Below are positions 12,227 through 26,871 of a DNA stretch of 26,871 nucleotides, one piece after another. The translations under genes were made by a program, and so were the position numbers. Origin of the DNA: Promethearchaeota archaeon (lineage in GTDB: Archaea > Asgardarchaeota > Thorarchaeia > Thorarchaeales > Thorarchaeaceae); contig WJMJ01000138.1 in the NCBI GenBank assembly GCA_014728035.1, positions 1 to 26,871 of the forward strand, read 5' to 3'. Every line of letters starts with the position of its first letter. Position 1 is the stretch's first letter. Below the pieces are notes generated by a model. That model had not been told where the DNA came from. It did not search any database and saw nothing but the letters and a program-made list of their open reading frames with translations.

Positions 12227-13045
12227 TTGCTGATTAATTTGAAACGATTTTCTCTGTTAGTTCTAACGGGATGTATCCTTTCATTGGTCTTGATGGCGCC
12301 GCAAGTCACACCAGTTAAGGCTTTGAAAATGGAGTATTTCCCTCTATCCCCGGGTAATTTTAACGAGTTCAATACCACAACAGATAGCGAAACGTGGATG
12401 ACAAAACGATACGTGGCAGACGATTGGGAATTTCTAGGTGGGCCCTTTGGTACATTCACCATATATTGGTGCGAAGCCCATATGTATGAAGATGAAACGG
12501 ACTACACATGGGTCAATCAAATGTGGCTATCAAAGACTGATGACACAGTAATCTGGTGGGGTTTTGAAGATGCCAATGCAAAAATTACAGTATCTCAAGG
12601 ACTCCCATATGTACGAGAACCAGTTCAAAATGGAACGAAGCTCGGAGGGTCGTCCACAGGAGACTTGTTGGTTAAGGAAAGCGGTCAAGTCATTCCGAAT
12701 GTTCCTTTCAAGGCAAATTACACAATTGAGGCTCTTGAATCGGTGACGGTTCCCAAAGGCACATTTGAGAATTGCATTAGGATCCATGAGGAGGAAATTA
12801 CGCCAGACGGAGAGATCAGCTTCTGGGTCTGGTATGCGCCCAATGTAGGAGCTGTAAAATACTTCTATCCAGATCAAGAAAATCGCACTGATGTGCTTGT
12901 TGACTATGGGGTAGACCTCGAAAATGATCCATGGGACGCCTGGTTCGTGCCCCAACTTCCAACTGTACTACTCATCACCACTATAGCGATTGTAGCAGTA
13001 GTATCTGTAGGTGTAATATTTCTAGTTAGAAAACGAAATGCATGA
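12227..13045 (+). CDS. Secreted beta-rich protein with C-terminal membrane anchor (VTVPxGTF family, DUF3108/TapB-like)
   Basis: Signal peptide; ESVTVPKGTFENCIRI...WYAPNVGAVK; C-terminal TM followed by RKRNA. Confidence 0.75.
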   Translation: MLINLKRFSLLVLTGCILSLVLMAPQVTPVKALKMEYFPLSPGNFNEFNTTTDSETWMTKRYVADDWEFLGGPFGTFTIYWCEAHMYEDETDYTWVNQMWLSKTDDTVIWWGFEDANAKITVSQGLPYVREPVQNGTKLGGSSTGDLLVKESGQVIPNVPFKANYTIEALESVTVPKGTFENCIRIHEEEITPDGEISFWVWYAPNVGAVKYFYPDQENRTDVLVDYGVDLENDPWDAWFVPQLPTVLLITTIAIVAVVSVGVIFLVRKRNA

Positions 13046-15935: not shown

Positions 15936-16181
15936 TCAGTCAGCTTTCTCAATCTTGAGAGCTCTGAGAGTCTTACTGTCCAAAATGGGCTCGTATATGA
16001 CATGTACCTTAGCATCCTCTTTAACAGTCTCACATTCGGTATTAATATTAATCTCAAATTTATAGTACTCCTTGTCGGGAGCACGAATAGTAACGATTCC
16101 TGTTGGAATGTCGTTATCCCCATAATGTTCAATCTGAGAAGACACAATAGTACCTTCAATCTCACGTTTCATTGATATCAA
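15936..16181 (-). CDS. Small hypothetical protein, probable OB-fold
   Basis: IEGTIVS...VTI...KVHVIYE...ALKIE five-strand pattern. Confidence 0.6.
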   Translation of the reverse strand: MISMKREIEGTIVSSQIEHYGDNDIPTGIVTIRAPDKEYYKFEININTECETVKEDAKVHVIYEPILDSKTLRALKIEKAD

Positions 16182-16242: not shown

Positions 16243-16794
16243 CTATTCGTATGATAGTTCGACCTCTTTCACTCGATCTTCATAGACGTTGTGAATAAGT
16301 TCTCGGTCGAATTTGTATTCTTCCTTCAACATCAGATCCATCTCTTCACGGGACAGATATTTCATTGCCGCTTTGAAGAACACTTTATCTTCCTTTTCGA
16401 TATGTTGGGGATAGAATTCCACCAATTGACGCATCACATCAACAATGGAGATGATGGCCTCGTCCGTTCCAGATATATACCTCTCTTTTGCATCAACCAG
16501 CTCTTTCGTCAATTTTCGACCAAGTATATGTTCCTGAATCAATTCATCCATCAATGCTTGATCCTCATCAGTCAAGGCTTTCTTCTTCAAATCACGAAAG
16601 AGTATATCTTCTTCCTTTCCATGGTGGCATCTATCTGCATATGTCTGGATGAAATCTACAGCTACCTCAATAAAAGTGGGATCTGCCGTATTGTCCTCCT
16701 CGATGCGTTCAATCTCTTTCTCCATTGCTGCAATCATTCTTTCAATCAGACGATGTTCTATCATTAAGGAGCTAATAGGTTGAACCAAGTTCAC
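16243..16794 (-). CDS. Hemerythrin (HHE cation-binding) domain protein
   Basis: LMIEH, HHGKEEDILF, EHILGR, HIEKEDKVFF; GAGGT SD upstream. Confidence 0.93.
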   Translation of the reverse strand: MNLVQPISSLMIEHRLIERMIAAMEKEIERIEEDNTADPTFIEVAVDFIQTYADRCHHGKEEDILFRDLKKKALTDEDQALMDELIQEHILGRKLTKELVDAKERYISGTDEAIISIVDVMRQLVEFYPQHIEKEDKVFFKAAMKYLSREEMDLMLKEEYKFDRELIHNVYEDRVKEVELSYE

Positions 16795-16898
16795 ATAACC
16801 TCATTTTGAGTTATCTAATTCTCACTATTAACTATGGTTAAAAACACCTAATAATTGCTTCTGTGTCACATAAATTTAAACTTGGAAATAAGAAGCAT

Positions 16899-17588
16899 TC
16901 ATAGGACACGAATAATGCAAAAGATGCTTGATTCATCTATTTCTGAGATGGCCACTTCGAGATTGTCTTGCTCTAAGGAAGTGGTGAGTTTAAGAAAATC
17001 CTCCTGGGTGAAAGTCGTTGCTCGAAAACCATCTTTACAGACAATCTCCCCGTCTTTGGTTAGAGCCCAATCAATTTCGCCAAGGAGACCCTCATCAGAC
17101 TGTAACCTAAACCATTCCATCCGGCCATTCCAAAATTTTGGGGAATAGCTGGAGAAGATTGATAGACCTCCATCTCTTGTTACCCGAATAGTTTCCATCA
17201 TCAGTTGTAATGGGTCTAATTTGAAAGCAGATATTCCATTTTGTAAAACCAATACAGCATCAAAAGATGCATTTCTGAAGGGAAGGAGATTTGCATTGGC
17301 TTGTAAGAGATGTATTCTATTCCCCATTATATACTCATTCTGAGCCATAGAGAGGCTAGTATATGATGTATCAATACCAACAACCGTTTTGCCAGATTCT
17401 GCTAAACGAGGGAGTATTCGGCCATATCCACAACCTAATTCTAAAACAGTATCATCTTCGTCTATGAGAGAAGTTGCGTAATCAAGCTCTGCATCAAGAT
17501 ACTGTTGCGTTCGAGGTGGTGCAATATCATAACATCTCTTGAGCCTATCAGCAGAGAGCTTCTCTGAGTAGTATTGATTATCTGGCAT
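16899..17588 (-). CDS. Class I SAM-dependent methyltransferase
   Basis: VLELGCGYGR, VGIDTS, LPFRNASFDAV. Confidence 0.93.
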   Translation of the reverse strand: MPDNQYYSEKLSADRLKRCYDIAPPRTQQYLDAELDYATSLIDEDDTVLELGCGYGRILPRLAESGKTVVGIDTSYTSLSMAQNEYIMGNRIHLLQANANLLPFRNASFDAVLVLQNGISAFKLDPLQLMMETIRVTRDGGLSIFSSYSPKFWNGRMEWFRLQSDEGLLGEIDWALTKDGEIVCKDGFRATTFTQEDFLKLTTSLEQDNLEVAISEIDESSIFCIIRVL

Positions 17589-17650: not shown

Positions 17651-20600
17651 CTACTCAGTTAGTGGTAAATCATGGTATTCATTGGAGTGACGTCCTCTTA
17701 ATCTATCTACTAATTTTGGAAACCATCTCACAAACCTTGAAGACACAAATGGTATCAATACTAGGAATAAGATGGGAACCAACACAATAGCTGCCATTGA
17801 GTAGTTCTTCAGGATGAAATCTAGCTGAACTACTGTAGTTGCACCTAGAATAAGCAAGAACATCAGGAACTTGATTCTGATTGAAGATCCTGTTCGACCT
17901 ATTAGAATTACTTGTTCCTCGTCAACCACATTCTTTGGTGTCCCAGCTGCAATCATATCATCAATCCGTTGTAATCCCTTTCGAATCTCACGATAGAAGC
18001 TGATAACTACAACCACGATGCTGCTCATATATGTTGCAAGGATGGTTGCAAGTAGAGGTGGAAAACTTAGACCACCTATTGATATCCATTCAACACTCAT
18101 AACATATCTATCAAAGAACTCAAAGCTCGGACCATAATAGAAGATGAGCAGTACAATGAACGGTACGAGAACTAGATGCCAGATACCCAAAGCAATTCTC
18201 CTTTTACTTAGCTGACCGTGTAACAGGATTGAAGAGTATGCATCCCTATAGAGCCATATACCATATAACAGAACGGATGAGCCAAGTAGAAGGATGCTCT
18301 CAAGCAAAGCTAATGCAGCCTCACCTGCTGAGAAAAGAGACCAGGAATGAAGGAACAACAGTCCCGATATCGCCACGATAACAAGATAGATTCTATCTAT
18401 CTGTCTTATACTTCTTGTAATATCTTCGTCTTTTCTAGGTGTTGTCGATACAGCTGAAGAAACCTTCACAAACAGGACCATCCCGATTAAGCTAAGAAGT
18501 AATGACAACCCTCCTGCAATAGATACTGTTTCTGCACTAAGTGCTTCATTACCAGGAGTGGAAACTTCAACGACGACCGATCTACTCATGCTTCCAGAAC
18601 TTGTGAGGGAGCCATTCACTTGCACTGAGATATCGTATGTGCCAAAGTATGTGTGTCCAATATCGAACATTGCAATATATGTACCTCTCAGATTCCCTTC
18701 TTCCGCAACTTTACTCATCCCTGCGAACTCCACCAAGACCTCAAGGTCGGTGATAGGATTCTCATATAGATCTGCGACTTCTACAGTCACATTAAGAGTA
18801 GTGAATTGCTCAGGGCGCTCAGATGATGGAACAATTGTAATGGTCGGTACTGCGATGACCGAAAGATTTCCGCTTATCTGGGATATGTACAGATACTCAT
18901 GTTCTACCGTAAGTTGATATGGGTGTTGTCCATACGGCCATCCCACTGTAGAGATTTCTGTTCCGTAGACACCATCACTGACATAATCAAGAGAATAGGG
19001 AATGCCCCTGATTCTGAGACTCACTGATGCATTCTCGATAGATGTTCCCAACCAACCTTTGACAGCAACCTCGATTGAAGTTGTCTCGGTCTGGTTAACA
19101 GACCATCCACTTGATGGCGAGATGGAGATAATCGAGTTAGATTTTACAGAGATATATTCGACTGTTTTAGCATCATGGATGAATTCGGAACCATAATACA
19201 CAGTTAGTGTCCATTCCCCTACGGGATATGTTGCATTCAATTGTGCTCTAAAGGAGTTCCCTGAAATCTTGGATGTGGTGTAATTAGTACCATCTATCTC
19301 AACCAAGACCCAGGTATCACTTGGAATTGGTCCATAATCATCAGTGATGAAGACGGTCACATTGAATAGTTCTCCACCAGTCACAGAATCAATCTCAAGT
19401 ACATTTGGTTCAACAAGTCCAATTGTGGCCATATGAAACTCACCAAAGGTAGAACCTTGAATGTAGTCGTGTATTACTTGAATCTCGAAGGTATGATTGC
19501 CTAGTTCCATTGCAGCAGTTGAATCAAGATAATAGCATCCGGTTTCTATCTCAGATAAAGAGAGTTCCAAACCTGCACCCGTGATAGATACCTGTGCGTT
19601 ATCAATAGGATGATCAAAGATGTCAGTGATGTTAATCCATCCAGAAAATGTATCATCTTGTTCGATACTAACTGGCATGAATCGGGATATCTGAATCTCA
19701 TCGACTTCAATACTGAACGATACAGTAGCATAGGTTATGGTATCAGAGTATACGTGACTTGCTGACGCATTAATCATATATGGTCCAGGTTTGAGGTCTA
19801 TATTTGGAATTAGCAGACGGTATAGATTACCGGAATAAGCAACTATGTAATGACTGCCCTCCAACTCGATATTAACAGATGCATCCGACACGCGTGTACC
19901 AAGACTATCTGTAACAGTTACATCTGCAGTTAAAGTCTGATTTTGCATCAGAACACTCTTTGTATAGACTTCTACACTCAAGTCACTCTTCACAACTAAT
20001 GCATCGGGATAAGACTCCTCAAAGGCATCGTATAAGTCATGATTGATGGTCAGACTGAAATTCACAATACCCATTGGCCATGTTGCTGCGAGTGTCGTAG
20101 AATAATTAGAAGAACCATGGATAAGAGCGCTCGTTTGACTGATAATAGAACCGCCCGATTTGTAATGAACAGTTAAGAACACTTCTGCATCTGAAATTTC
20201 TTCGGAATAGATATTGGTTACATCAACTGATACGTCTAATGATTCACTTTGCACTATCTCATCTATAGAATAGCTAAGAGAGGCATTTAAGCGTCTGATG
20301 AGTACGATATCCCTAATCACACCAATCTTCGTCACGCCATCCTGAATCAATGGATATGCTACAATCTCTTCACCATAGCCAAGGTCGATGTTGCTCAGCT
20401 TCATTGAGCCATGCCCTTCACCAACGTTAAGCTCTCTTTCAATTTCACCATCCAACGAGATAATCCATAGCATAGAATCCTGCTCAGTGAACACTGCAAT
20501 CTCATCCTGATCATCACCATCGAAATCAACGATAACAGAACTCAGAAAATCAGCCGTGCTTAGCGATAATGACCAGTCTACGACAATAGGATTGTCCAGT

Positions 20601-23176
20601 CTCAAAAGTGCAACATCTTGATTGAACAAGCTAACACCAAAAATTTCATCCGTTCCATCATCCTCAACGTCAAGGATTTTCAGATGGTAATAGACCTCGT
20701 TGTCCTTGTGAAAAAGTGGGGTCTCATTGATTTTAACGGTTGATGCATCGAATACTTGGAAACCACAGCTAAATTCACCACCATCAACAAAGTACATGTA
20801 TAATAGAAACTTAGTACGAGATTCTGATGCATTATGATAGTTGAAAAGATATGCAGGTATCGTGTTATCAAATTCGGGTCGTGTCACATTGTGAGTTGAT
20901 AGAATCGTCATACTTGACGCATTGATAATGTCTACGTCACCTGATGCTGCAGATACAACAGCTTCTGCAGAGTTGTCATTTAATGAATAAGCAAGACTTA
21001 CTGAATAGATTTCAGAATTATACCCAGTTAATGAAACATTGGACCATGACCCATCTGCTTTCAAACGAGCAAGATATGCATCATAGCTATTGCTCGAGTT
21101 CTCGAATACGAAGAAGAACTCATCTATACCATCATTATCACAATCATAGGTCTGACCAGATTGGATTTTTCTCATTTGGTCAAAGGGATACTGAGTCGAG
21201 TACCATAATGTACCTGTGTTTCCATGATAGATTGTCACATTTACTATCTCAGCTGTCGCATTGTACAATAAGATGACTGGGTCTAGAAGATGATCTCCAT
21301 CCATCATTCCGGTATAAATCCAGTAATCGCTGAATGTTCTATTCGCAACAACACTCAATGATTGATTTTCACCCCTAGGCGTGTAACTATCCAAATAGAT
21401 TACATCATTGCTTGAATCCAATGTATAGATTACTTCCTCTCCTGTCGAAGTGTTACCTATGTCCATCAGTTGATGATTTAAATCAGTAGTATGATGTTTT
21501 GTGTCGGACCAAGCAAGATTGCCAGCCACTGTGAAGTTTACTGGATGAGTTTCGTTCCCAAGAGATCCTATATTCAAATATACATCCATAAAGACGAGAT
21601 AGTATTCATAGGCACCTTCGGGTAATCCGACAAGAAATGCAAAGTATTGAGTTCCAGCGTTTTGAAGTTCGTCAACTGGCTGAGTCCAATTGCCTTCTTC
21701 ATATCGTAAATATATATCTGCCAGAATAACGGATGTCCCCTCTTCAACACCAACCTCAATTTCGATGTAGGGATCTCGAATAGTAGGGTGAGGGGGTGAT
21801 AATGTTTCCGGAGTTATTATTGGAGCAGTCACATCACTAAGCATCACATATACGTATTGACCTTCCAAAACGAGAATATCATCTCTGGAGTTATTGTTGA
21901 TATCGAATACCTTAATGTTTACTGGCTTGCTTGAGATTGTAGACTCCTCATATCCAACAGTCCCATCAAGACCCCTAAGGAATGCCGCACTACTGGAGGT
22001 TCCTTCGAGGATGGCAAAATCTGTAAGATTATCATTATCAATGAAACCACAGTCGATAAGTGGTGCTGGGGGAGTTCCAGAGATTTGTCCCTCAGAAGTT
22101 CCAGCAATCGTATCTGAATACCGTATGATAGAACCATTGGTACCATCAATAAATACCGTGTAATTATCCTGTATCGGAGCAACTAGTAAGTCAGTTTGGC
22201 TATCATCATTCAGATAACCTGTTGTCACGACACTCCGTTCGGGAAGTCCTGTGACATTGTATAATGATGTCATGGTCGAGGGGGAGATTGTAGTAAGATT
22301 GCCATCAAACATCATAAGTGCAATGTCATCAAGTCCTCCGCCATAGTCAAAATTCGTCATACCCAGTATTTCAATGTGCATCATAGCAGTTCTCTGAATT
22401 GTGCCATTTCCGGCAATAATCGTGAAGTTTCCATTCTTATTAGCATCATAGATACCCATGGCAATGGAATCCTCTGTTGGTTCGATGAAACGTCCGACGG
22501 AATAACAATCAATCTCAAAACCAGAAAATGTCAAGTTTGCGAGAACCTGTTCGGTATGAATATCCAGTATTTCAACACCTAATATTTCATCACTTACTGC
22601 TCCATAGAATATAGCAACATCAAGAAACGAATCGTCATTGAAGTATCCAGTTGTAACATCTGTAGGGTAGCGAGCGTTAGTAATAGAGGTGTTGTAAATA
22701 GTGGTAGTAGCATCGTTGAAATCGACAACCAACAGATTGTATACTGTACCATTGTCATTCATCAATAGAAATTCAGTGCTCCCATCAGCATCAATATCAA
22801 CACTGGTGAGAATTTTCTCTTCGACCGTTCCAGACTCTATTGTTTGGTTCAAGGTCACATTATTTATGGGGTCGACAAATCTGACCTCATCAGCATATTG
22901 ATCAGTATATGCAAATCCTCGATAAGCGTCTACAACTCCAGGCGATATGCGGTCGGGACTATGTGTCAAGGAAATAGGTAATAGCAGTTCATTCTCTGTT
23001 AGGATTACAGCATCAACAGGTTCTTCTGCAGGCAAACAGACATCTTGTGAAGGCCCAGACATCAACGGCAAAATCGCTATACATAGCATAATTGAAAGAG
23101 GAATCAGTTTAATCGCATAACGTTCAGAGTTTCGAAGGTGACGTACTTTTATCCTTTCAGCGGCGTTTCTGGCCAT
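17651..23176 (-). CDS. Large cell-surface protein: FG-GAP beta-propellers, Ig-like repeats and C-terminal 7-TM domain
   Basis: N-terminal signal/TM; many DxDxDGxxD/E-type loops (DIDADGSTE, YFNDDSFLD, YLNDDSQTD, DINNNSRDD, DCDNDGIDE, DFDGDDQDE); ~95-aa repeats VxVTDxxGxxIxxAxV; seven hydrophobic helices at the C-terminus. Confidence 0.88.
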   Translation of the reverse strand: MARNAAERIKVRHLRNSERYAIKLIPLSIMLCIAILPLMSGPSQDVCLPAEEPVDAVILTENELLLPISLTHSPDRISPGVVDAYRGFAYTDQYADEVRFVDPINNVTLNQTIESGTVEEKILTSVDIDADGSTEFLLMNDNGTVYNLLVVDFNDATTTIYNTSITNARYPTDVTTGYFNDDSFLDVAIFYGAVSDEILGVEILDIHTEQVLANLTFSGFEIDCYSVGRFIEPTEDSIAMGIYDANKNGNFTIIAGNGTIQRTAMMHIEILGMTNFDYGGGLDDIALMMFDGNLTTISPSTMTSLYNVTGLPERSVVTTGYLNDDSQTDLLVAPIQDNYTVFIDGTNGSIIRYSDTIAGTSEGQISGTPPAPLIDCGFIDNDNLTDFAILEGTSSSAAFLRGLDGTVGYEESTISSKPVNIKVFDINNNSRDDILVLEGQYVYVMLSDVTAPIITPETLSPPHPTIRDPYIEIEVGVEEGTSVILADIYLRYEEGNWTQPVDELQNAGTQYFAFLVGLPEGAYEYYLVFMDVYLNIGSLGNETHPVNFTVAGNLAWSDTKHHTTDLNHQLMDIGNTSTGEEVIYTLDSSNDVIYLDSYTPRGENQSLSVVANRTFSDYWIYTGMMDGDHLLDPVILLYNATAEIVNVTIYHGNTGTLWYSTQYPFDQMRKIQSGQTYDCDNDGIDEFFFVFENSSNSYDAYLARLKADGSWSNVSLTGYNSEIYSVSLAYSLNDNSAEAVVSAASGDVDIINASSMTILSTHNVTRPEFDNTIPAYLFNYHNASESRTKFLLYMYFVDGGEFSCGFQVFDASTVKINETPLFHKDNEVYYHLKILDVEDDGTDEIFGVSLFNQDVALLRLDNPIVVDWSLSLSTADFLSSVIVDFDGDDQDEIAVFTEQDSMLWIISLDGEIERELNVGEGHGSMKLSNIDLGYGEEIVAYPLIQDGVTKIGVIRDIVLIRRLNASLSYSIDEIVQSESLDVSVDVTNIYSEEISDAEVFLTVHYKSGGSIISQTSALIHGSSNYSTTLAATWPMGIVNFSLTINHDLYDAFEESYPDALVVKSDLSVEVYTKSVLMQNQTLTADVTVTDSLGTRVSDASVNIELEGSHYIVAYSGNLYRLLIPNIDLKPGPYMINASASHVYSDTITYATVSFSIEVDEIQISRFMPVSIEQDDTFSGWINITDIFDHPIDNAQVSITGAGLELSLSEIETGCYYLDSTAAMELGNHTFEIQVIHDYIQGSTFGEFHMATIGLVEPNVLEIDSVTGGELFNVTVFITDDYGPIPSDTWVLVEIDGTNYTTSKISGNSFRAQLNATYPVGEWTLTVYYGSEFIHDAKTVEYISVKSNSIISISPSSGWSVNQTETTSIEVAVKGWLGTSIENASVSLRIRGIPYSLDYVSDGVYGTEISTVGWPYGQHPYQLTVEHEYLYISQISGNLSVIAVPTITIVPSSERPEQFTTLNVTVEVADLYENPITDLEVLVEFAGMSKVAEEGNLRGTYIAMFDIGHTYFGTYDISVQVNGSLTSSGSMSRSVVVEVSTPGNEALSAETVSIAGGLSLLLSLIGMVLFVKVSSAVSTTPRKDEDITRSIRQIDRIYLVIVAISGLLFLHSWSLFSAGEAALALLESILLLGSSVLLYGIWLYRDAYSSILLHGQLSKRRIALGIWHLVLVPFIVLLIFYYGPSFEFFDRYVMSVEWISIGGLSFPPLLATILATYMSSIVVVVISFYREIRKGLQRIDDMIAAGTPKNVVDEEQVILIGRTGSSIRIKFLMFLLILGATTVVQLDFILKNYSMAAIVLVPILFLVLIPFVSSRFVRWFPKLVDRLRGRHSNEYHDLPLTE

Positions 23177-23407
23177 GGTGGTTCCATCCCAAATGGATTC
23201 AGAGATGCATATGAACAAACACATTTCTATGTTTCTAATCTATTGGAATTCAATGAAGTGTACTTTCAATTGTGACAAGATATCGCTATGCTTCGAAAGT
23301 CCATATAGAAAAAACACAATACTGTCATTGTAAATACGTTTCAACTTGGAAGGTAGAGGTTTTCACTTTGAATCATTTGGAGTATCTGATATTACGTATC
23401 ACAACAG

Positions 23408-23466
23408 TCTAGTTCATGCTCAACCAGACAATTGATGCAAAATAAGTAGGTTGCTAAACAGTGGGC
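23408..23466 (+). repeat. Inter-cassette repeat copy 1 (left arm and core only)
   Basis: TCTAGTTCATGCTCAACCAGACAAT...TAGGTTGCTAAACAGTGGGC; aligns with copies 2-4. Confidence 0.85.
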
Positions 23467-23502
23467 GGACTGCACATCACACAACTCATATACGTTTTTC
23501 AA

Positions 23503-24000
23503 TCAGCTTAATTGTTCCAAAATCTGCAGATAGTATTTTGTGGAGATACGAAATGAGGTTCCTTCAATAAGGTAGTTGAACTTGGCAATTGCATTATTCT
23601 TAGAGAGAATATTGGTCTTCACTGCACGCAAGAGTATTCCGATTGTTCCAGTGAGATCTAATCCAAGAGTTCGTGCAATATCGCGAGCCGCAAGGTCATC
23701 AATGATAACAATCGATTCCGTTTCTTTCATCTCATACCCAAGGGAGATAACATCAATCTCTCCCTGATGCAGGCCCATCATGCTGAGCTTTTCTGATAAA
23801 GGTGATACACGCACAGAACTCATTTTCAACCAGGATTCAAAAGCATCTGTAAGAATAGTAAATTCAGGTGTTGTCGCATCAAGCACTTCATTCATCACAG
23901 AACGAGTTGTGATGATACTATCAAATAGATCTCTCAATAGGTGAACCAAGCCAATCTTTCCCAAGTAAATGAGAGGTGATGAGTTAACAATACCTATCAC
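23503..24000 (-). CDS. PIN-domain toxin, DUF3368 family
   Basis: IVNSSPLIYLGKI, LHQGE, IIDDLAAR, GTIGILL. Confidence 0.92.
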   Translation of the reverse strand: MIGIVNSSPLIYLGKIGLVHLLRDLFDSIITTRSVMNEVLDATTPEFTILTDAFESWLKMSSVRVSPLSEKLSMMGLHQGEIDVISLGYEMKETESIVIIDDLAARDIARTLGLDLTGTIGILLRAVKTNILSKNNAIAKFNYLIEGTSFRISTKYYLQILEQLS

Positions 24001-24003
24001 AGG

Positions 24004-24315
24004 TTATCCCTCAGCAAAGAGCAAATCTTCCCTAAGTGATTGTTCATCATATATGGAGATACCACGCTTTGCTATCTCTGTCATCATGGCCCTCAGAGAG
24101 ATTCCCGCTATTGAAGAAGCCTTCCACATACTAAGGCGTTTTGCGGCAACCTCCTCAGAGAGAAAGTCAAGGAGGTCTTCTCTAAGTGAACGGTCAATCA
24201 AACGACGGACATATGCAGACTTGTCCACAATCTTCCGTTTTTCCATCAGGAAGGCAAGCCGTTTTTCCAAGTCTTCATCAAGGCGAACTGATAGTACGTC
24301 AGCCATCGTCATCAT
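24004..24315 (-). CDS. Antitoxin, UPF0175 family (N-terminal RHH plus HTH)
   Basis: VLSVRLDEDL...KSAYVRRLI; LSMWKASSIAGISL; lies 3 bp upstream of the DUF3368 gene. Confidence 0.9.
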   Translation of the reverse strand: MMTMADVLSVRLDEDLEKRLAFLMEKRKIVDKSAYVRRLIDRSLREDLLDFLSEEVAAKRLSMWKASSIAGISLRAMMTEIAKRGISIYDEQSLREDLLFAEG

Positions 24316-24350
24316 GTATACTATGTATGACAGAGTATATGACTTTTATG
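24316..24350 (-). promoter_or_regulatory. TA promoter/operator 1
   Basis: Minus strand CATAAAA-GTCATATAC-TCT-GTCATAC-ATAGTATAC-ATG: TATA-like box plus GTCATA direct repeats. Confidence 0.5.
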
Positions 24351-24374
24351 TAGTACATTGAGCTATATCTAGAA

Positions 24375-24510
24375 TCTAAGCTACACTCAATCGGATAATA
24401 ACAAAGAAATGAAAATAGGTAGCTCAACAGTGGACGAGGAGGCAAGTAACTATTTGTCAGACCGCTGTTCGTCGGGTATTGCAGATTTTATGAGTCTACG
24501 CAATGCGTAA
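24375..24510 (+). repeat. Inter-cassette repeat copy 2
   Basis: TCTAAGCTACACTCAATCGGATAAT...TAGGTAGCTCAACAGTGGACGAGGAGGCAAGTAACTATTTGTC...GTTCGTCGGGTATTGCAGAT. Confidence 0.88.
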
Positions 24511-24565
24511 AATGTGAGTGATGATGAAAGTCAATTGAAATGACTAATTCGATCTGAAGTCAGAA

Positions 24566-24958
24566 TTAGTATGACTCTACACTCAAGTCTTGGAATCTTT
24601 CAAAATGTCGAAGGTTACGAGTCACGACAGTCTCTTTATGTTGGACTGCAATCCCAGCAATCTGTGCATCTATTGGATCGATTGAAATCCCTACTCCTTT
24701 CAAACGGCCAATCTCCAGACCAGCCCACCATGCGGAAACTGCATCAAGGGGAAGGATTTGAAATTCTTCCAGAATACTATCAATCCGTTTCTGTTCCTTG
24801 CTTGGTAACTTTGCCAAAGAAAGACCAACCGCTAATTCCATTACTGAAGGGGATGCAAGATACTGGGGATGTTGACCTTGTTGTATCAATTCGAGTTTTT
24901 GCAGAGCATCCTCGTTCGTTCGCATGATATCAATAACAAAACTTGAGTCTGCAATCAA
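24566..24958 (-). CDS. vapC: VapC PIN-domain toxin
   Basis: IADSSFVID, SVMEL, PIDAQIAGIA, VVTRNLRHF; 4-bp overlap with the antitoxin stop. Confidence 0.95.
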   Translation of the reverse strand: MIADSSFVIDIMRTNEDALQKLELIQQGQHPQYLASPSVMELAVGLSLAKLPSKEQKRIDSILEEFQILPLDAVSAWWAGLEIGRLKGVGISIDPIDAQIAGIAVQHKETVVTRNLRHFERFQDLSVESY

Positions 24959-25197
24959 TGATCTGTCACCAACTCTTCCATACTTTTTTCCCAGGTCTTG
25001 GACCGCTCTTGTCTGAAATCTGCTAGTGCATCAGTCAGTCTACTTACTGATTCTTCTGAAATGCATCCTATGAAATCACTCAAGGTTCGTCTTTGTGCGA
25101 GCCTAATGACAACTTGACTGAAACTCTCATTCTCACGTTTTGCTTTTTTCAAAATAGCATAGGCTTCTTCAGAGAGTGAAATTGTCTTGTATCCCAT
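24955..25197 (-). CDS. vapB: VapB antitoxin (archaeal DUF217/COG1753 type)
   Basis: KTISLSEEAYAILKKAKRENESFSQVVIRL; start at ATG 25197. Confidence 0.93.
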   Translation of the reverse strand: MGYKTISLSEEAYAILKKAKRENESFSQVVIRLAQRRTLSDFIGCISEESVSRLTDALADFRQERSKTWEKSMEELVTDH

Positions 25198-25208
25198 CTT
25201 GCTCGCTC

Positions 25209-25238
25209 GTGTATGTATGTGTATGAGGAGATATAAAA
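25209..25238 (-). promoter_or_regulatory. TA promoter/operator 2
   Basis: Minus strand TTTTATA followed by CATACA-CATA-CATACAC direct repeats. Confidence 0.55.
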
Positions 25239-25300
25239 TCACTGCTCTTGCAATTTAGAGGGAGATGTCACCATCTGGGACTACCTGCAATCTCTGGTGA

Positions 25301-25444
25301 CCTAGTTCCCACTCAACAAGACAATCATTGCAAAAACGAAAAGGTGCTCAACAATGGACATGAGGAGTAGGTAACCGTTTGACCTTCTCCCGCTCGTCTG
25401 CTATTACAAATCGCTGAACGATTTGCGAAATAAATGTCTAGGAG
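25301..25444 (+). repeat. Inter-cassette repeat copy 3
   Basis: CCTAGTTCCCACTCAACAAGACAAT...AAGGTGCTCAACAATGGACATGAGGAGTAGGTAACCGTTTGACCTTCTCCCGCTCGTCTGCTATTACAAAT...ACGATT...ATGTCTAGGAG. Confidence 0.9.
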
Positions 25445-25500
25445 TAAGTCGTAGAACGGATTCATGATGGGATGTGCGCGTTTGAGGATCATTCTATGAA

Positions 25501-25550
25501 TTTATATTGTCAGAATAGATAATATCAATCAGAATAGAGATAGAATATCA
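25501..25550 (+). promoter_or_regulatory. TA promoter/operator 3
   Basis: TTTATA at 25501; TCAGAATAGA at 25510 and 25529, plus TAGAATATCA; GGAG SD. Confidence 0.55.
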
Positions 25551-25561
25551 GGAGAATCATA

Positions 25562-25816
25562 ATGAGTCTGACTAAAGAGAGTCAAATCGGAAAGAAACAT
25601 ACGATATATCTTCCAAAAACGATTGTGGACAAAGCACGTCTTGAAGTAGGCATGAAGATTTTGATAACAGTTGAGGGGAATAAGATAATCATTGAACCAT
25701 TGCCAGACCCCATCACCTTGGCACTTCATGGGAAGAAATTTGCATCCATGACCTTAGAAGAAATTGAGGCAATCAGTGTTGAAGAGCAATCAAGACAAAC
25801 AGATGATACTTCTTGA
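25562..25816 (+). CDS. AbrB/MazE/SpoVT family antitoxin
   Basis: IGKKHTIYLPKTIV...LEVG...VEGNKIIIEP. Confidence 0.92.
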   Translation: MSLTKESQIGKKHTIYLPKTIVDKARLEVGMKILITVEGNKIIIEPLPDPITLALHGKKFASMTLEEIEAISVEEQSRQTDDTS

Positions 25817-26231
25817 TACCTCATTTCTGCTACCGTCTCTGGGAATAGAAGTGGAAAAAGAAGTGATGGAAACCCTTTCAAAACTAGTCTCCGATGACAC
25901 TAGCCTATTCTATTCAGAATGGAGCATCCTTGAGTGCAGTTGGATTGCAATTAGACAGATCAAAGGGGACAATTATGATCAATCTCTCTTTAGAAGGGGG
26001 CTTCTCAGTATAACCAAGACAGAAGTATACAATCTAATTCAACCAGATCCAGAAGACTATCTGAATGCACTGACACTCTATCAAAAAGGCCACCATGATA
26101 TGATGGATAATCTACTATATACAACTGCTCTGCGGAAACAGTACCGATTTCTCACGATAGATTATGATTTGTCTAGATTCATATCCAAGAATCAAATAGA
26201 GAATATCATACTCACACCGGAAGATATCTAA
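25803..26231 (+). CDS. vapC: PIN-domain (VapC-like) toxin
   Basis: MILLDTSFLLP, SILE, GHHDMMDNLLY, FLTID; overlaps the antitoxin by 14 bp. Confidence 0.9.
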   Translation: MILLDTSFLLPSLGIEVEKEVMETLSKLVSDDTSLFYSEWSILECSWIAIRQIKGDNYDQSLFRRGLLSITKTEVYNLIQPDPEDYLNALTLYQKGHHDMMDNLLYTTALRKQYRFLTIDYDLSRFISKNQIENIILTPEDI

Positions 26232-26265
26232 ATTCTCAGAATTACAACAGAATATACTTCTTAAA

Positions 26266-26404
26266 TCTAGGTTCCATTCAGCCTGACAGAAAGAAGATAA
26301 TGAGCGGGTGCTAAACAGTGGACGTGAGGGATGGGAAACATCTTCCTTCCCCCGTTCACCTGTGTTATCGCAGATTATTACGATTCACTGATATGTGTAG
26401 GAGG
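26266..26404 (+). repeat. Inter-cassette repeat copy 4
   Basis: TCTAGGTTCCATTCAGCCTGACAG...GGGTGCTAAACAGTGGACGTGAGGGATGGGAAACATCTTCCTTCCCCCGTTCACCTGTGTTATCGCAGAT...ACGATT...ATGTGTAGGAG. Confidence 0.9.
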
Positions 26405-26442
26405 TAATCCATCCGATCTTCTACTACAGATACCTTTGTCAT

Positions 26443-26853
26443 CTAATAATCTATCACTACAATACCATCAACAACTTTGAAATGGCTATCACGTGTGACT
26501 AAGGGGATATTGTGATGCTTTGAGGTGGCTGCGACTACAACATCAGCATAGGGAACCTTATTCCCCTGCTTTAACAGCAGGGCATCGATGTATGCAGCTT
26601 CTCGTGCAATTGAAGTGGTGAATTCCAGTTGTTCAAAATGAGCGAGGTCTGTGAAGGCCTTTCGGAGCTTATCATCCAGCGTTTTCTTCCCGATATGATG
26701 ATAATAGACACCTCGCAAATACTCGTGTACTGTTACTACAGATACCGCTTTTATGTCAGTGGTTTCATCAACCTGTTTTGCTGTGGATATAGCATCAACG
26801 TCACCTCTAGTGAGGTCTATGAGAAAGGTCGTATCAAAGATAGGCACGAGCAA
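26443..26853 (-). CDS. vapC: VapC PIN-domain toxin (cognate antitoxin presumably beyond the window end)
   Basis: IFDTTFLID, TVHEY, YADVVVAAT, LVTRDSHF; start is TTG 26853 or GTG 26847. Confidence 0.95.
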   Translation of the reverse strand: MLVPIFDTTFLIDLTRGDVDAISTAKQVDETTDIKAVSVVTVHEYLRGVYYHHIGKKTLDDKLRKAFTDLAHFEQLEFTTSIAREAAYIDALLLKQGNKVPYADVVVAATSKHHNIPLVTRDSHFKVVDGIVVIDY

Positions 26854-26871
26854 TCATCCCTCTTGTTGTGA

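Follow-up and report, generated by a model that had tools for sequence, protein, structure and literature searches.

What are the repeats that separate a run of toxin-antitoxin (TA) modules at one end of a contig from an archaeon of the family Thorarchaeaceae, and how did the modules come to lie between them? The window, that is, the whole stretch of DNA analysed here (26,871 nucleotides, contig WJMJ01000138.1), is the entire contig C111 of a 4.33-Mb genome (G000), and its last part, 23403-26871, holds four co-oriented repeat units that bound four TA modules. A first-pass annotation had described this region as a candidate platform for cassette capture, analogous to an integron, and had placed a short repeated core at four positions. 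This core, GCTMAACARTGGRC (14 nt), does start on the + strand at 23453, 24422, 25346, and 26310, with no mismatches and spacings of 969, 924, and 964 bp; the chance expectation is approximately 0.86 matches when up to two mismatches are allowed. Homology far exceeds the core: alignment of the four window copies, and then of all 10 copies in G000, defines a unit of about 150-180 nt. An nhmmer search of the window with a profile of the unit matched 23403-23555, 24370-24523, 25296-25452, and 26261-26413, with E-values from 4e-20 to 2e-33.

In the whole of G000, ten copies of the unit are present: four at the end of C111 and the others distributed over C14, C81, and C168, all of them short contigs. 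The next-best nhmmer matches outside these array contigs have E > 0.3. Scatter across the genome, as displayed by dispersed miniature inverted-repeat transposable elements (MITE) or repetitive extragenic palindromes (REP), had been named in the first-pass annotation as an observation that would speak against a cassette system; all 10 copies are instead confined to array contigs. Exact end overlaps of 141 bp link C111 to C81 (window 26731-26871 is identical to the end of C81) and C14 to C168, so the array extends beyond the window and broke the assembly. Overlaps of exactly this length are what a k = 141 assembly graph leaves where repeats interrupt it, and about 15 kb of the array can be ordered.

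The site had been taken for an unfamiliar sequence. It is, in fact, a minus-strand copy of the 3′ end of the 16S ribosomal RNA (rRNA) gene and of its trailer: the well-preserved units end, on the + strand of the window, in AGGAGGTGATCCATCCGCAGC..., which is the reverse complement of the 16S rRNA 3′ end. Since the unit copies the 16S tail, its functional orientation is that of the strand opposite to the core as first annotated, and the minus strand of the window, referred to as the 16S direction, is used here for reading units and cassettes. In this direction, the unit starts with segment A, the final 43 nt of 16S from TAACAAGG (helix 45 and the anti-Shine-Dalgarno tail), and continues with segments B and C, which are trailer hairpin 2 and then hairpin 1. 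Segment D consists of box 1, CACTGTTGAGCACC, followed by the T-rich run CTTTTCATTTTGCA, which may be a terminator; segment E is a spacer of about 12 nt, and segment F is box 2, GTTGAGTGGnAACTAG. GTTGAG is common to the two boxes. Four units retain the final 38-43 nt of the 16S gene in near-intact form, and three of these begin exactly at TAACAAGG. When the 16S region of a comparison genome from the same genus, Candidatus Thorarchaeota isolate BC (SHMX01; G025), was compared by BLAST with G000, it matched in two places only: unit C14_6221 (96%, 51 nt) and the start of contig C92.

The four units of the window, all on the minus strand, differ in preservation. Unit r4 (26261-26441; nhmmer E = 6e-32), aligned to the real 16S end, has a degenerate 16S 3′-end copy of about 43 nt, which reads AGGAGGTAATCCATCCG...ATACCTTTGTCA on the + strand (26399-26441) and is followed 1 nt further by the stop codon of a VapC gene. 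Unit r3 occupies 25296-25475 (E = 1.9e-33). In r2 (24370-24560; E = 7.5e-28, with alignments), a 16S-like part, which is degenerate, precedes both hairpins (2, then 1), box 1 (CACTGTTGAGC), the T-rich run, and box 2. The most degenerate unit is r1 (23403-23555; E = 4e-20), which is also the most distant from 16S; its orthologue in G025 is the final unit there (L019, approximately 15987-16061), and conserved chromosomal flank comes next in the 16S orientation. The C92 match, in turn, is a fragment at positions 1-163 (L144) that contains the last ~150 nt of 16S (Rfam 94 bits, 16-140; model positions 1344-1467) and is preceded by non-16S sequence with defence-type genes (AbiV-HEPN, a YhcG-type PDDEXK nuclease, and DUF6602). 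Either this is a unit whose 16S portion is far longer than usual, or the assembly has produced a chimera.

What does the copied trailer do in its original context? The 16S leader of G025 holds GCTCAACAGTG, the exact complement of box 1 and of the unit core. In a relative from another genus (G081), GCTCAGCAGTG stands in the leader and CACTGCTGAGC in the trailer, a compensatory change with respect to G025, and cofolding of leader and trailer yields one long helix. The leader complement, the paired change, and the cofolded helix together assign box 1 to the 16S processing stem, as its 3′ strand; archaeal pre-rRNA is well established to form such a stem (PMC7038931). Among 16 units, the pairing of hairpin 2 is kept by two-sided changes (one pair is GC in seven units and AU in six), and G-U pairs occur in the 16S-sense strand only. 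Rfam searches of the window (at gathering thresholds and at E <= 1), C14, C81, and C168 returned no family match. In single-strand folding of the four window copies, r1 and r2 were no better than shuffled sequences and r3 and r4 reached z-scores of about -1.5 to -2; with values this weak, folding energy alone supports nothing.

In relatives, the array is anchored directly on the 16S gene. The first unit begins where the Rfam small-subunit (SSU) rRNA match ends in representatives of six other genera (G081, G078, G011, G033, G063, and G017), and in G025 the contig with the 16S gene stops 34 nt into a unit. The 16S gene that anchors the array is unlinked to the 23S gene. In the other genera, similarity among units stops directly past TTTTGCA, and each genome's internal units bear a close resemblance to its real trailer. 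A BLAST search with one unit matched 49 of 86 genomes of the family, in 14 of 16 genera, some of these matches being only the genome's own 16S 3′ end; many of the matching genomes have three or more units together on a single contig, and several have three to eight. The one-contig "complete" genomes G009 and G057 gave no SSU match and are hence unusable for showing 16S anchoring. A search of viral contigs with the unit core found no match, and among metagenome contigs 17 loci matched, with a real array in just one (White Oak River, L151; four units). Judging from these comparisons, the part of the array in the window is the end most distant from 16S: its last unit is the most degenerate, and the gene for an FG-GAP repeat protein that flanks it is syntenic with G025, where it lies directly after the last unit.

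Two further 16S loci deserve mention. In G025, the 16S gene (L140, G025:C2, 4939-7349) is 2.4 kb long vs 1478 nt for the model, which leaves about 0.9 kb of insertions, presumably introns. In a genome of another Asgard family (G213), the 16S 3′ end and approximately 60 nt of trailer are duplicated (L145, G213:C5, 340-447 and 5063-5169). The duplicate lies 4.72 kb downstream with about 91% identity, and the insert between the two copies encodes proteins of 914 and 241 aa with no Pfam match, together with an archaeal histone. This duplication suggests that the 16S flank may be an insertion site beyond Thorarchaeaceae.

Are the modules between the units mobile? The evidence on cassette dynamics comes mainly from two congeneric metagenome-assembled genomes (MAGs), G000 and G025, one of which has an estimated contamination of 8.5%. 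Most cassettes and the far-end flank are syntenic in the two, at 68-87% nucleotide identity. Fixed gene order, the other observation that the first-pass annotation regarded as damaging, is not what the comparison reveals: cassettes have been gained, lost, duplicated, and reordered between these congeners, with breakpoints inside the repeat. The order X (VapB/PIN), Y (VapB/Doc), V (VapBC) in G025 corresponds to V′, Y, X, V in G000, where V′ is a second copy of V, 96% identical, at the opposite end of C81. G025 has no equivalent of the window's AbrB/PIN cassette; r3 is missing there apart from its box 2, and in pairwise alignment the homology picks up exactly at GTTGAGT. A 5.8-kb cassette with genes for a helix-turn-helix (HTH) protein, a leucine-rich repeat (LRR) protein, and an ABC transporter is present in G000 only.

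The boundaries of the moving piece can be read from the separate segments of the units. Segments A-C cluster by upstream cargo: C81_1287 groups with G25_12476, both behind Y, and C81_474, which follows one copy of V, groups with r4, which follows the other. For segment F the clustering is by downstream cargo, as C81_474 groups with G25_11668, both in front of Y. A cassette therefore comprises box 2, the cargo, and the downstream unit, with junctions between box 1 and box 2, and all junctions of the G000/G025 rearrangements fall in one ~40-nt zone of the unit. The converse arrangement, in which cargo moves with its upstream unit and an incoming unit restores the 16S end, was ruled out because segments A-C follow the upstream cargo. 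The orthologous units of cassette Y also differ in the loop of hairpin 2, which is inverted between L004 (C81, ~1230-1255; TCTCATGGA) and L019 (~12420-12445; TCCATGAGA); this is the kind of flip that arises from palindrome template switching or cruciform processing.

With the repeat identified, its 16S anchoring seen in relatives, and rearrangement observed at the level of whole cassettes, we consider it likely that the locus is an array anchored on the 16S flank whose cassettes are rearranged by recombination between units. A cassette, in the 16S direction, would consist of the 5′ box GTTGAGTGGnAACTAG, the cargo (mostly a type II TA pair with its own promoter), and a 3′ unit. Recombination between units would lead to the gain, loss, duplication, and relocation of cassettes, with exchange occurring within the ~40-nt zone from box 1 to box 2. 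The cargo would thus move with its downstream unit, like an integron open reading frame (ORF) with its attC site, and the resident 16S trailer would serve as the docking site. The enzyme could be a site-specific recombinase or the host homologous recombination machinery, and within this explanation we divide our expectation roughly evenly between the two. As for the TA modules, they probably stabilise the array and may contribute to defence.

A narrower proposal, which we hold as no better than tentative, is that of a dedicated capture system, independent of IntI, in Thorarchaeaceae and perhaps in other Asgard archaea, with the 16S 3′ end as the analogue of attI, the cassette copy as the analogue of attC, and a recombinase cutting at the GTTGAG boxes. 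If so, cassettes behind the strongest promoter of the cell might be expressed by read-through.

Searches for such an enzyme were negative. In G000, no protein exceeded the 265-bit cut-off of the integron integrase model TIGR02249, the best score being 24 bits for a generic recombinase on C17. Tyrosine recombinases (PF00589) were absent at E <= 0.001 from the array-bearing genomes G025, G078 (both 97-98% complete), and G009 (86%), which therefore have no recognisable Xer-type resolvase. Serine recombinases (PF00239) were absent from G078, and Y1 transposases (PF01797) from G025, G081, and G011. Searches with these four models and with the reverse transcriptase model PF00078 revealed no family common to the array-bearing genomes. 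An RNA or complementary DNA origin of the units was dropped as a leading idea, reverse transcriptase being found only in G000. No recombinase family is among the 25 commonest families of 115 ORFs surveyed in the arrays of eight genomes, and Pfam scans of the G000 and G025 cassettes found no recombinase either. The proteins beside the C92 fragment and within the G213 insert have no recombinase domain and no mutual similarity.

Several points weigh against a 16S-anchored array that recombines between units. No recombinase is linked to the arrays, and the excision of cassettes as circles is a step that we infer. The units closest to 16S are not the best preserved, contrary to what simple insertion of each new cassette beside 16S would predict. 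Moreover, the junctions sit in the sole segment that is near-identical across units (their most conserved 35 nt), where homologous recombination would place them too. Finally, the 16S gene of G000 is unassembled, so anchoring in this genome rests on G025 and the other relatives. The integron-like capture platform proposed in the first-pass annotation finds partial support, in the cassette array with its co-oriented sites, flipping cargo, and rearrangements; a dedicated recombination system would be a putative addition to it.

The position of the junctions makes a serious rival of the explanation that no dedicated machinery exists: the 16S trailer would have been duplicated long ago, and ordinary homologous recombination, unequal crossing-over, and gene conversion among the copies would since have shuffled, duplicated, and deleted the sequences between them. 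The lack of a recombinase family shared by array-bearing genomes agrees with this, and gene conversion is suggested by the internal units, which in every genus examined resemble the real trailer of the same genome. Homologous recombination alone, however, cannot attach new, unrelated cargo, and yet many unrelated genes lie in the arrays between boundaries that are tight and uniform. On the right, the boundary directly past TTTTGCA is the same in six genera despite differing trailers, and on the left TAACAAGG forms the boundary in two (three units of G000 and G025; G009). In addition, two junctions leave a box 2 without the remainder of its unit, or a unit without a box 2, an outcome that equal exchange between repeats does not yield. 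On balance we regard this explanation as rather unlikely. Less probable still is a graveyard of independent integrative elements, be they proviruses, plasmids, or islands, each of which would have inserted with its own integrase at an attB site in the 16S 3′ end and decayed to TA genes and att scars. Integrase insertion classically leaves as its scar direct repeats that duplicate the 3′ portion of an RNA gene, and tandem accretion of this kind is documented for the tycheposon islands of Prochlorococcus, whose elements accrete at the 3′ ends of tRNA and tmRNA genes, carry integrases, and have sites of about 40 nt (bioRxiv 10.1101/2020.12.28.424599). The single 4.7-kb insert of G213 between duplicates of the 16S end and trailer, and the longer ~150-nt 16S fragment that adjoins defence genes on C92, would also suit such elements. 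Nevertheless, the cassettes are minimal (0.7-1.3 kb, one TA pair, tens of nt from the units), and no integrase remnants were seen among the 115 array ORFs. The same minimal cassettes occur in different order and copy number in two species, so they move as cassettes, and their cargo is tied to the downstream unit, whereas a tRNA-type model expects an upstream attP copy that restores the RNA gene.

We find it very hard to credit that this is an ordinary array of the kind known as clusters of attC sites lacking integron integrases (CALINs), acted on in trans by an integron integrase. The array does have co-oriented sites that follow TA-rich cargo in cassettes of one or two genes, it varies between relatives, and its GTTGAGC/GTTGAGT box fits the core-site consensus GTTRRRY; CALINs are, moreover, listed in Asgard genomes, in a survey of integrons and CALINs where just two MAGs represent the Thorarchaeaceae (two attC sites apiece) and rRNA is never mentioned (Ghaly et al., 2022; PMC9668308). 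An attC site, however, pairs R″ (RYYYAAC) with R′ (GTTRRRY) around an imperfect hairpin, and here GTTGAGC fits R′ only, the unit having no inverse core site for its box. The GTTGAG box has its complement (GCTCAAC) in the leader of 16S, at a distance of 1.5-2.4 kb upstream from the 3′ end of the gene; the expected position of R″ reads GCGATAA, GCAATA, or GCAACGA, is variable, and is predicted to form only a wobble-rich pairing of 5 bp. Between the units and the resident 16S flank, homology extends over about 180 nt; attC and attI, by contrast, are mutually unrelated. No IntI was found in cis or elsewhere in the genome, and three array-bearing genomes are devoid of any tyrosine recombinase. The IntegronFinder-based screen reported attC in two genomes of the family vs the 49 of 86 that match the unit query, some by their own 16S 3′ end only. 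Equally hard to credit is that the units are kept mainly for an RNA-level role, as a terminator, a stabiliser of 3′ untranslated regions, an insulator of the 16S transcript, or an anti-Shine-Dalgarno decoy, with the cassette appearance being secondary. It would account for the compensatory changes of hairpin 2 and its sense-strand G-U pairs, for the T-rich run that closes each unit, and for the alignment of most TA cargo with the 16S direction; in a rough automatic pick of ORFs of any kind, 77 run with 16S and 44 against it. It nonetheless leaves unexplained the gain, loss, and reordering of cassettes and the fixed start in the 16S tail; the cassettes have promoters of their own, as read from their sequence, the 16S-like part is degenerate in many units, and no Rfam family matches.

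How does the 16S-anchored array compare with known systems? Like sedentary integrons and CALINs, it is a long succession of small cassettes, each with cargo and then a structured, co-oriented site; as in the Vibrio cholerae repeats (VCRs) of sedentary integrons, sites are similar within one genome. Also shared are TA cassettes with their own promoters in either orientation, an order that varies between relatives, and a GTTRRRY-like junction box. In contrast, the Thorarchaeota site measures about 180 nt, copies the 16S 3′ end and trailer, and is homologous to its docking site, and the arrays are without an R″/R′ pair or IntI and have an rRNA gene as anchor rather than intI-attI. The evidence thus fits an integron-like logic (a chromosomal docking site, one structured site per cassette, exchange in a short zone) and does not fit membership of the integrons. 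With tycheposon islands, the arrays share growth beside a stable RNA gene, partial 3′-end copies that separate modules, accessory or defence cargo, and older modules pushed deeper by newcomers. The direct repeats are indeed partial copies of the 3′ end of the adjacent RNA gene, abutting 16S being seen in relatives; an integrase for each element, present now or formerly, was not found. Further differences are that the target is 16S, that the duplicated block, made up of the gene end, the processing stem, and the T-rich run, spans about 180 nt instead of about 40 nt, that the modules have no integrase or replication genes, that the cargo moves with its downstream repeat, and that the junctions lie at the repeat end most distant from 16S.

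The pdif modules of Acinetobacter depend on XerC/XerD and have 28-bp dif-like sites in alternating orientation on plasmids. They resemble the Thorarchaeota cassettes in being small and integrase-less, often with a TA pair, and in their short recombination sites and an enzyme encoded elsewhere. However, the units described here are direct repeats of about 180 nt, chromosomal and rRNA-derived, and Xer-type recombinases are undetectable in several of the genomes; a pdif system would call for XerC/XerD (XerA in archaea), and three array-bearing genomes have no PF00589 match. The first-pass view that the site is neither a canonical attC nor dif is supported. A literature search for 16S-anchored cassette arrays found no description, and our verdict is that these arrays are a new variant of integron-like or tRNA-island-like gene capture.

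Should this be confirmed, the 16S 3′ flank would constitute a family-wide platform for gene capture, and a new route to accessory and defence islands in the archaeal group closest to eukaryotes, whose routes of horizontal gene flow are debated. The arrays would provide a natural contrast to integrons, with a shared array logic and TA-rich cargo but a site derived from an essential RNA gene and no visible integrase. There are practical consequences as well. The repeats break assemblies exactly at 16S, which helps to explain the absence of 16S from these MAGs, and both the annotation of rRNA and the analysis of anti-Shine-Dalgarno sequences can go astray at spare copies of the 16S 3′ end.

The cargo of the window bears out the first-pass description of several TA families that flip orientation between co-oriented sites, as Pfam searches confirm. 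Cassette T1 holds a DUF3368 (PIN-like) toxin gene (23503-24000, minus; PF11848, E = 1e-8), with an orthologue at the same array position in G025, and a UPF0175 antitoxin gene (24004-24315, minus; PF03683, E = 4.6e-7). Cassette VapBC-2 comprises a VapC (PIN) toxin gene (24566-24958, minus; PF01850, E = 5.9e-10) and a VapB antitoxin gene (24955-25242, minus; PF02697, E = 2.9e-15), the latter with its own TTTTATAT box, by reading of the sequence, about 30 nt upstream of the ATG at 25197. The only cassette of the window opposed to the 16S direction is AbrB/PIN, with an AbrB/MazE-type antitoxin gene (25562-25816, plus; PF04014, E = 2.8e-6) and a PIN toxin gene (25764-26231, plus; PF01850, E = 8.1e-5). 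Cassette V contributes a VapC (PIN) toxin gene (26443-26853, minus; PF01850, E = 1.3e-14), whose VapB partner lies beyond the contig edge, on C81 with the remainder of the array. Pairwise identity among the four toxins is at most 22%; they are therefore not tandem duplicates, in line with the earlier argument that tandem duplication does not explain the cargo.

In the arrays at large, the commonest families among the 115 ORFs include PIN (11), VapB (8), ParE (3), MazE (3), and Doc (2), and also DUF3368/UPF0175, with transporters, hydrolases, and methyltransferases alongside. In the array region of G078 (L023, G078:C2, 1946-2045, minus), a match to PYLIS_3, the pyrrolysine insertion element of mttB, lies within an ORF, which suggests that the cargo there includes a gene for a pyrrolysine-containing methyltransferase. 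On the far side of the window array, the conserved chromosomal flank begins with the gene for the 1857-aa FG-GAP repeat protein (17651-23224, minus; PF13517). On its array-distal side, at 16243-17588, genes for a class I S-adenosylmethionine (SAM) methyltransferase and a hemerythrin-domain protein have an ordinary chromosomal look, and the whole stretch that contains them is syntenic with G025.

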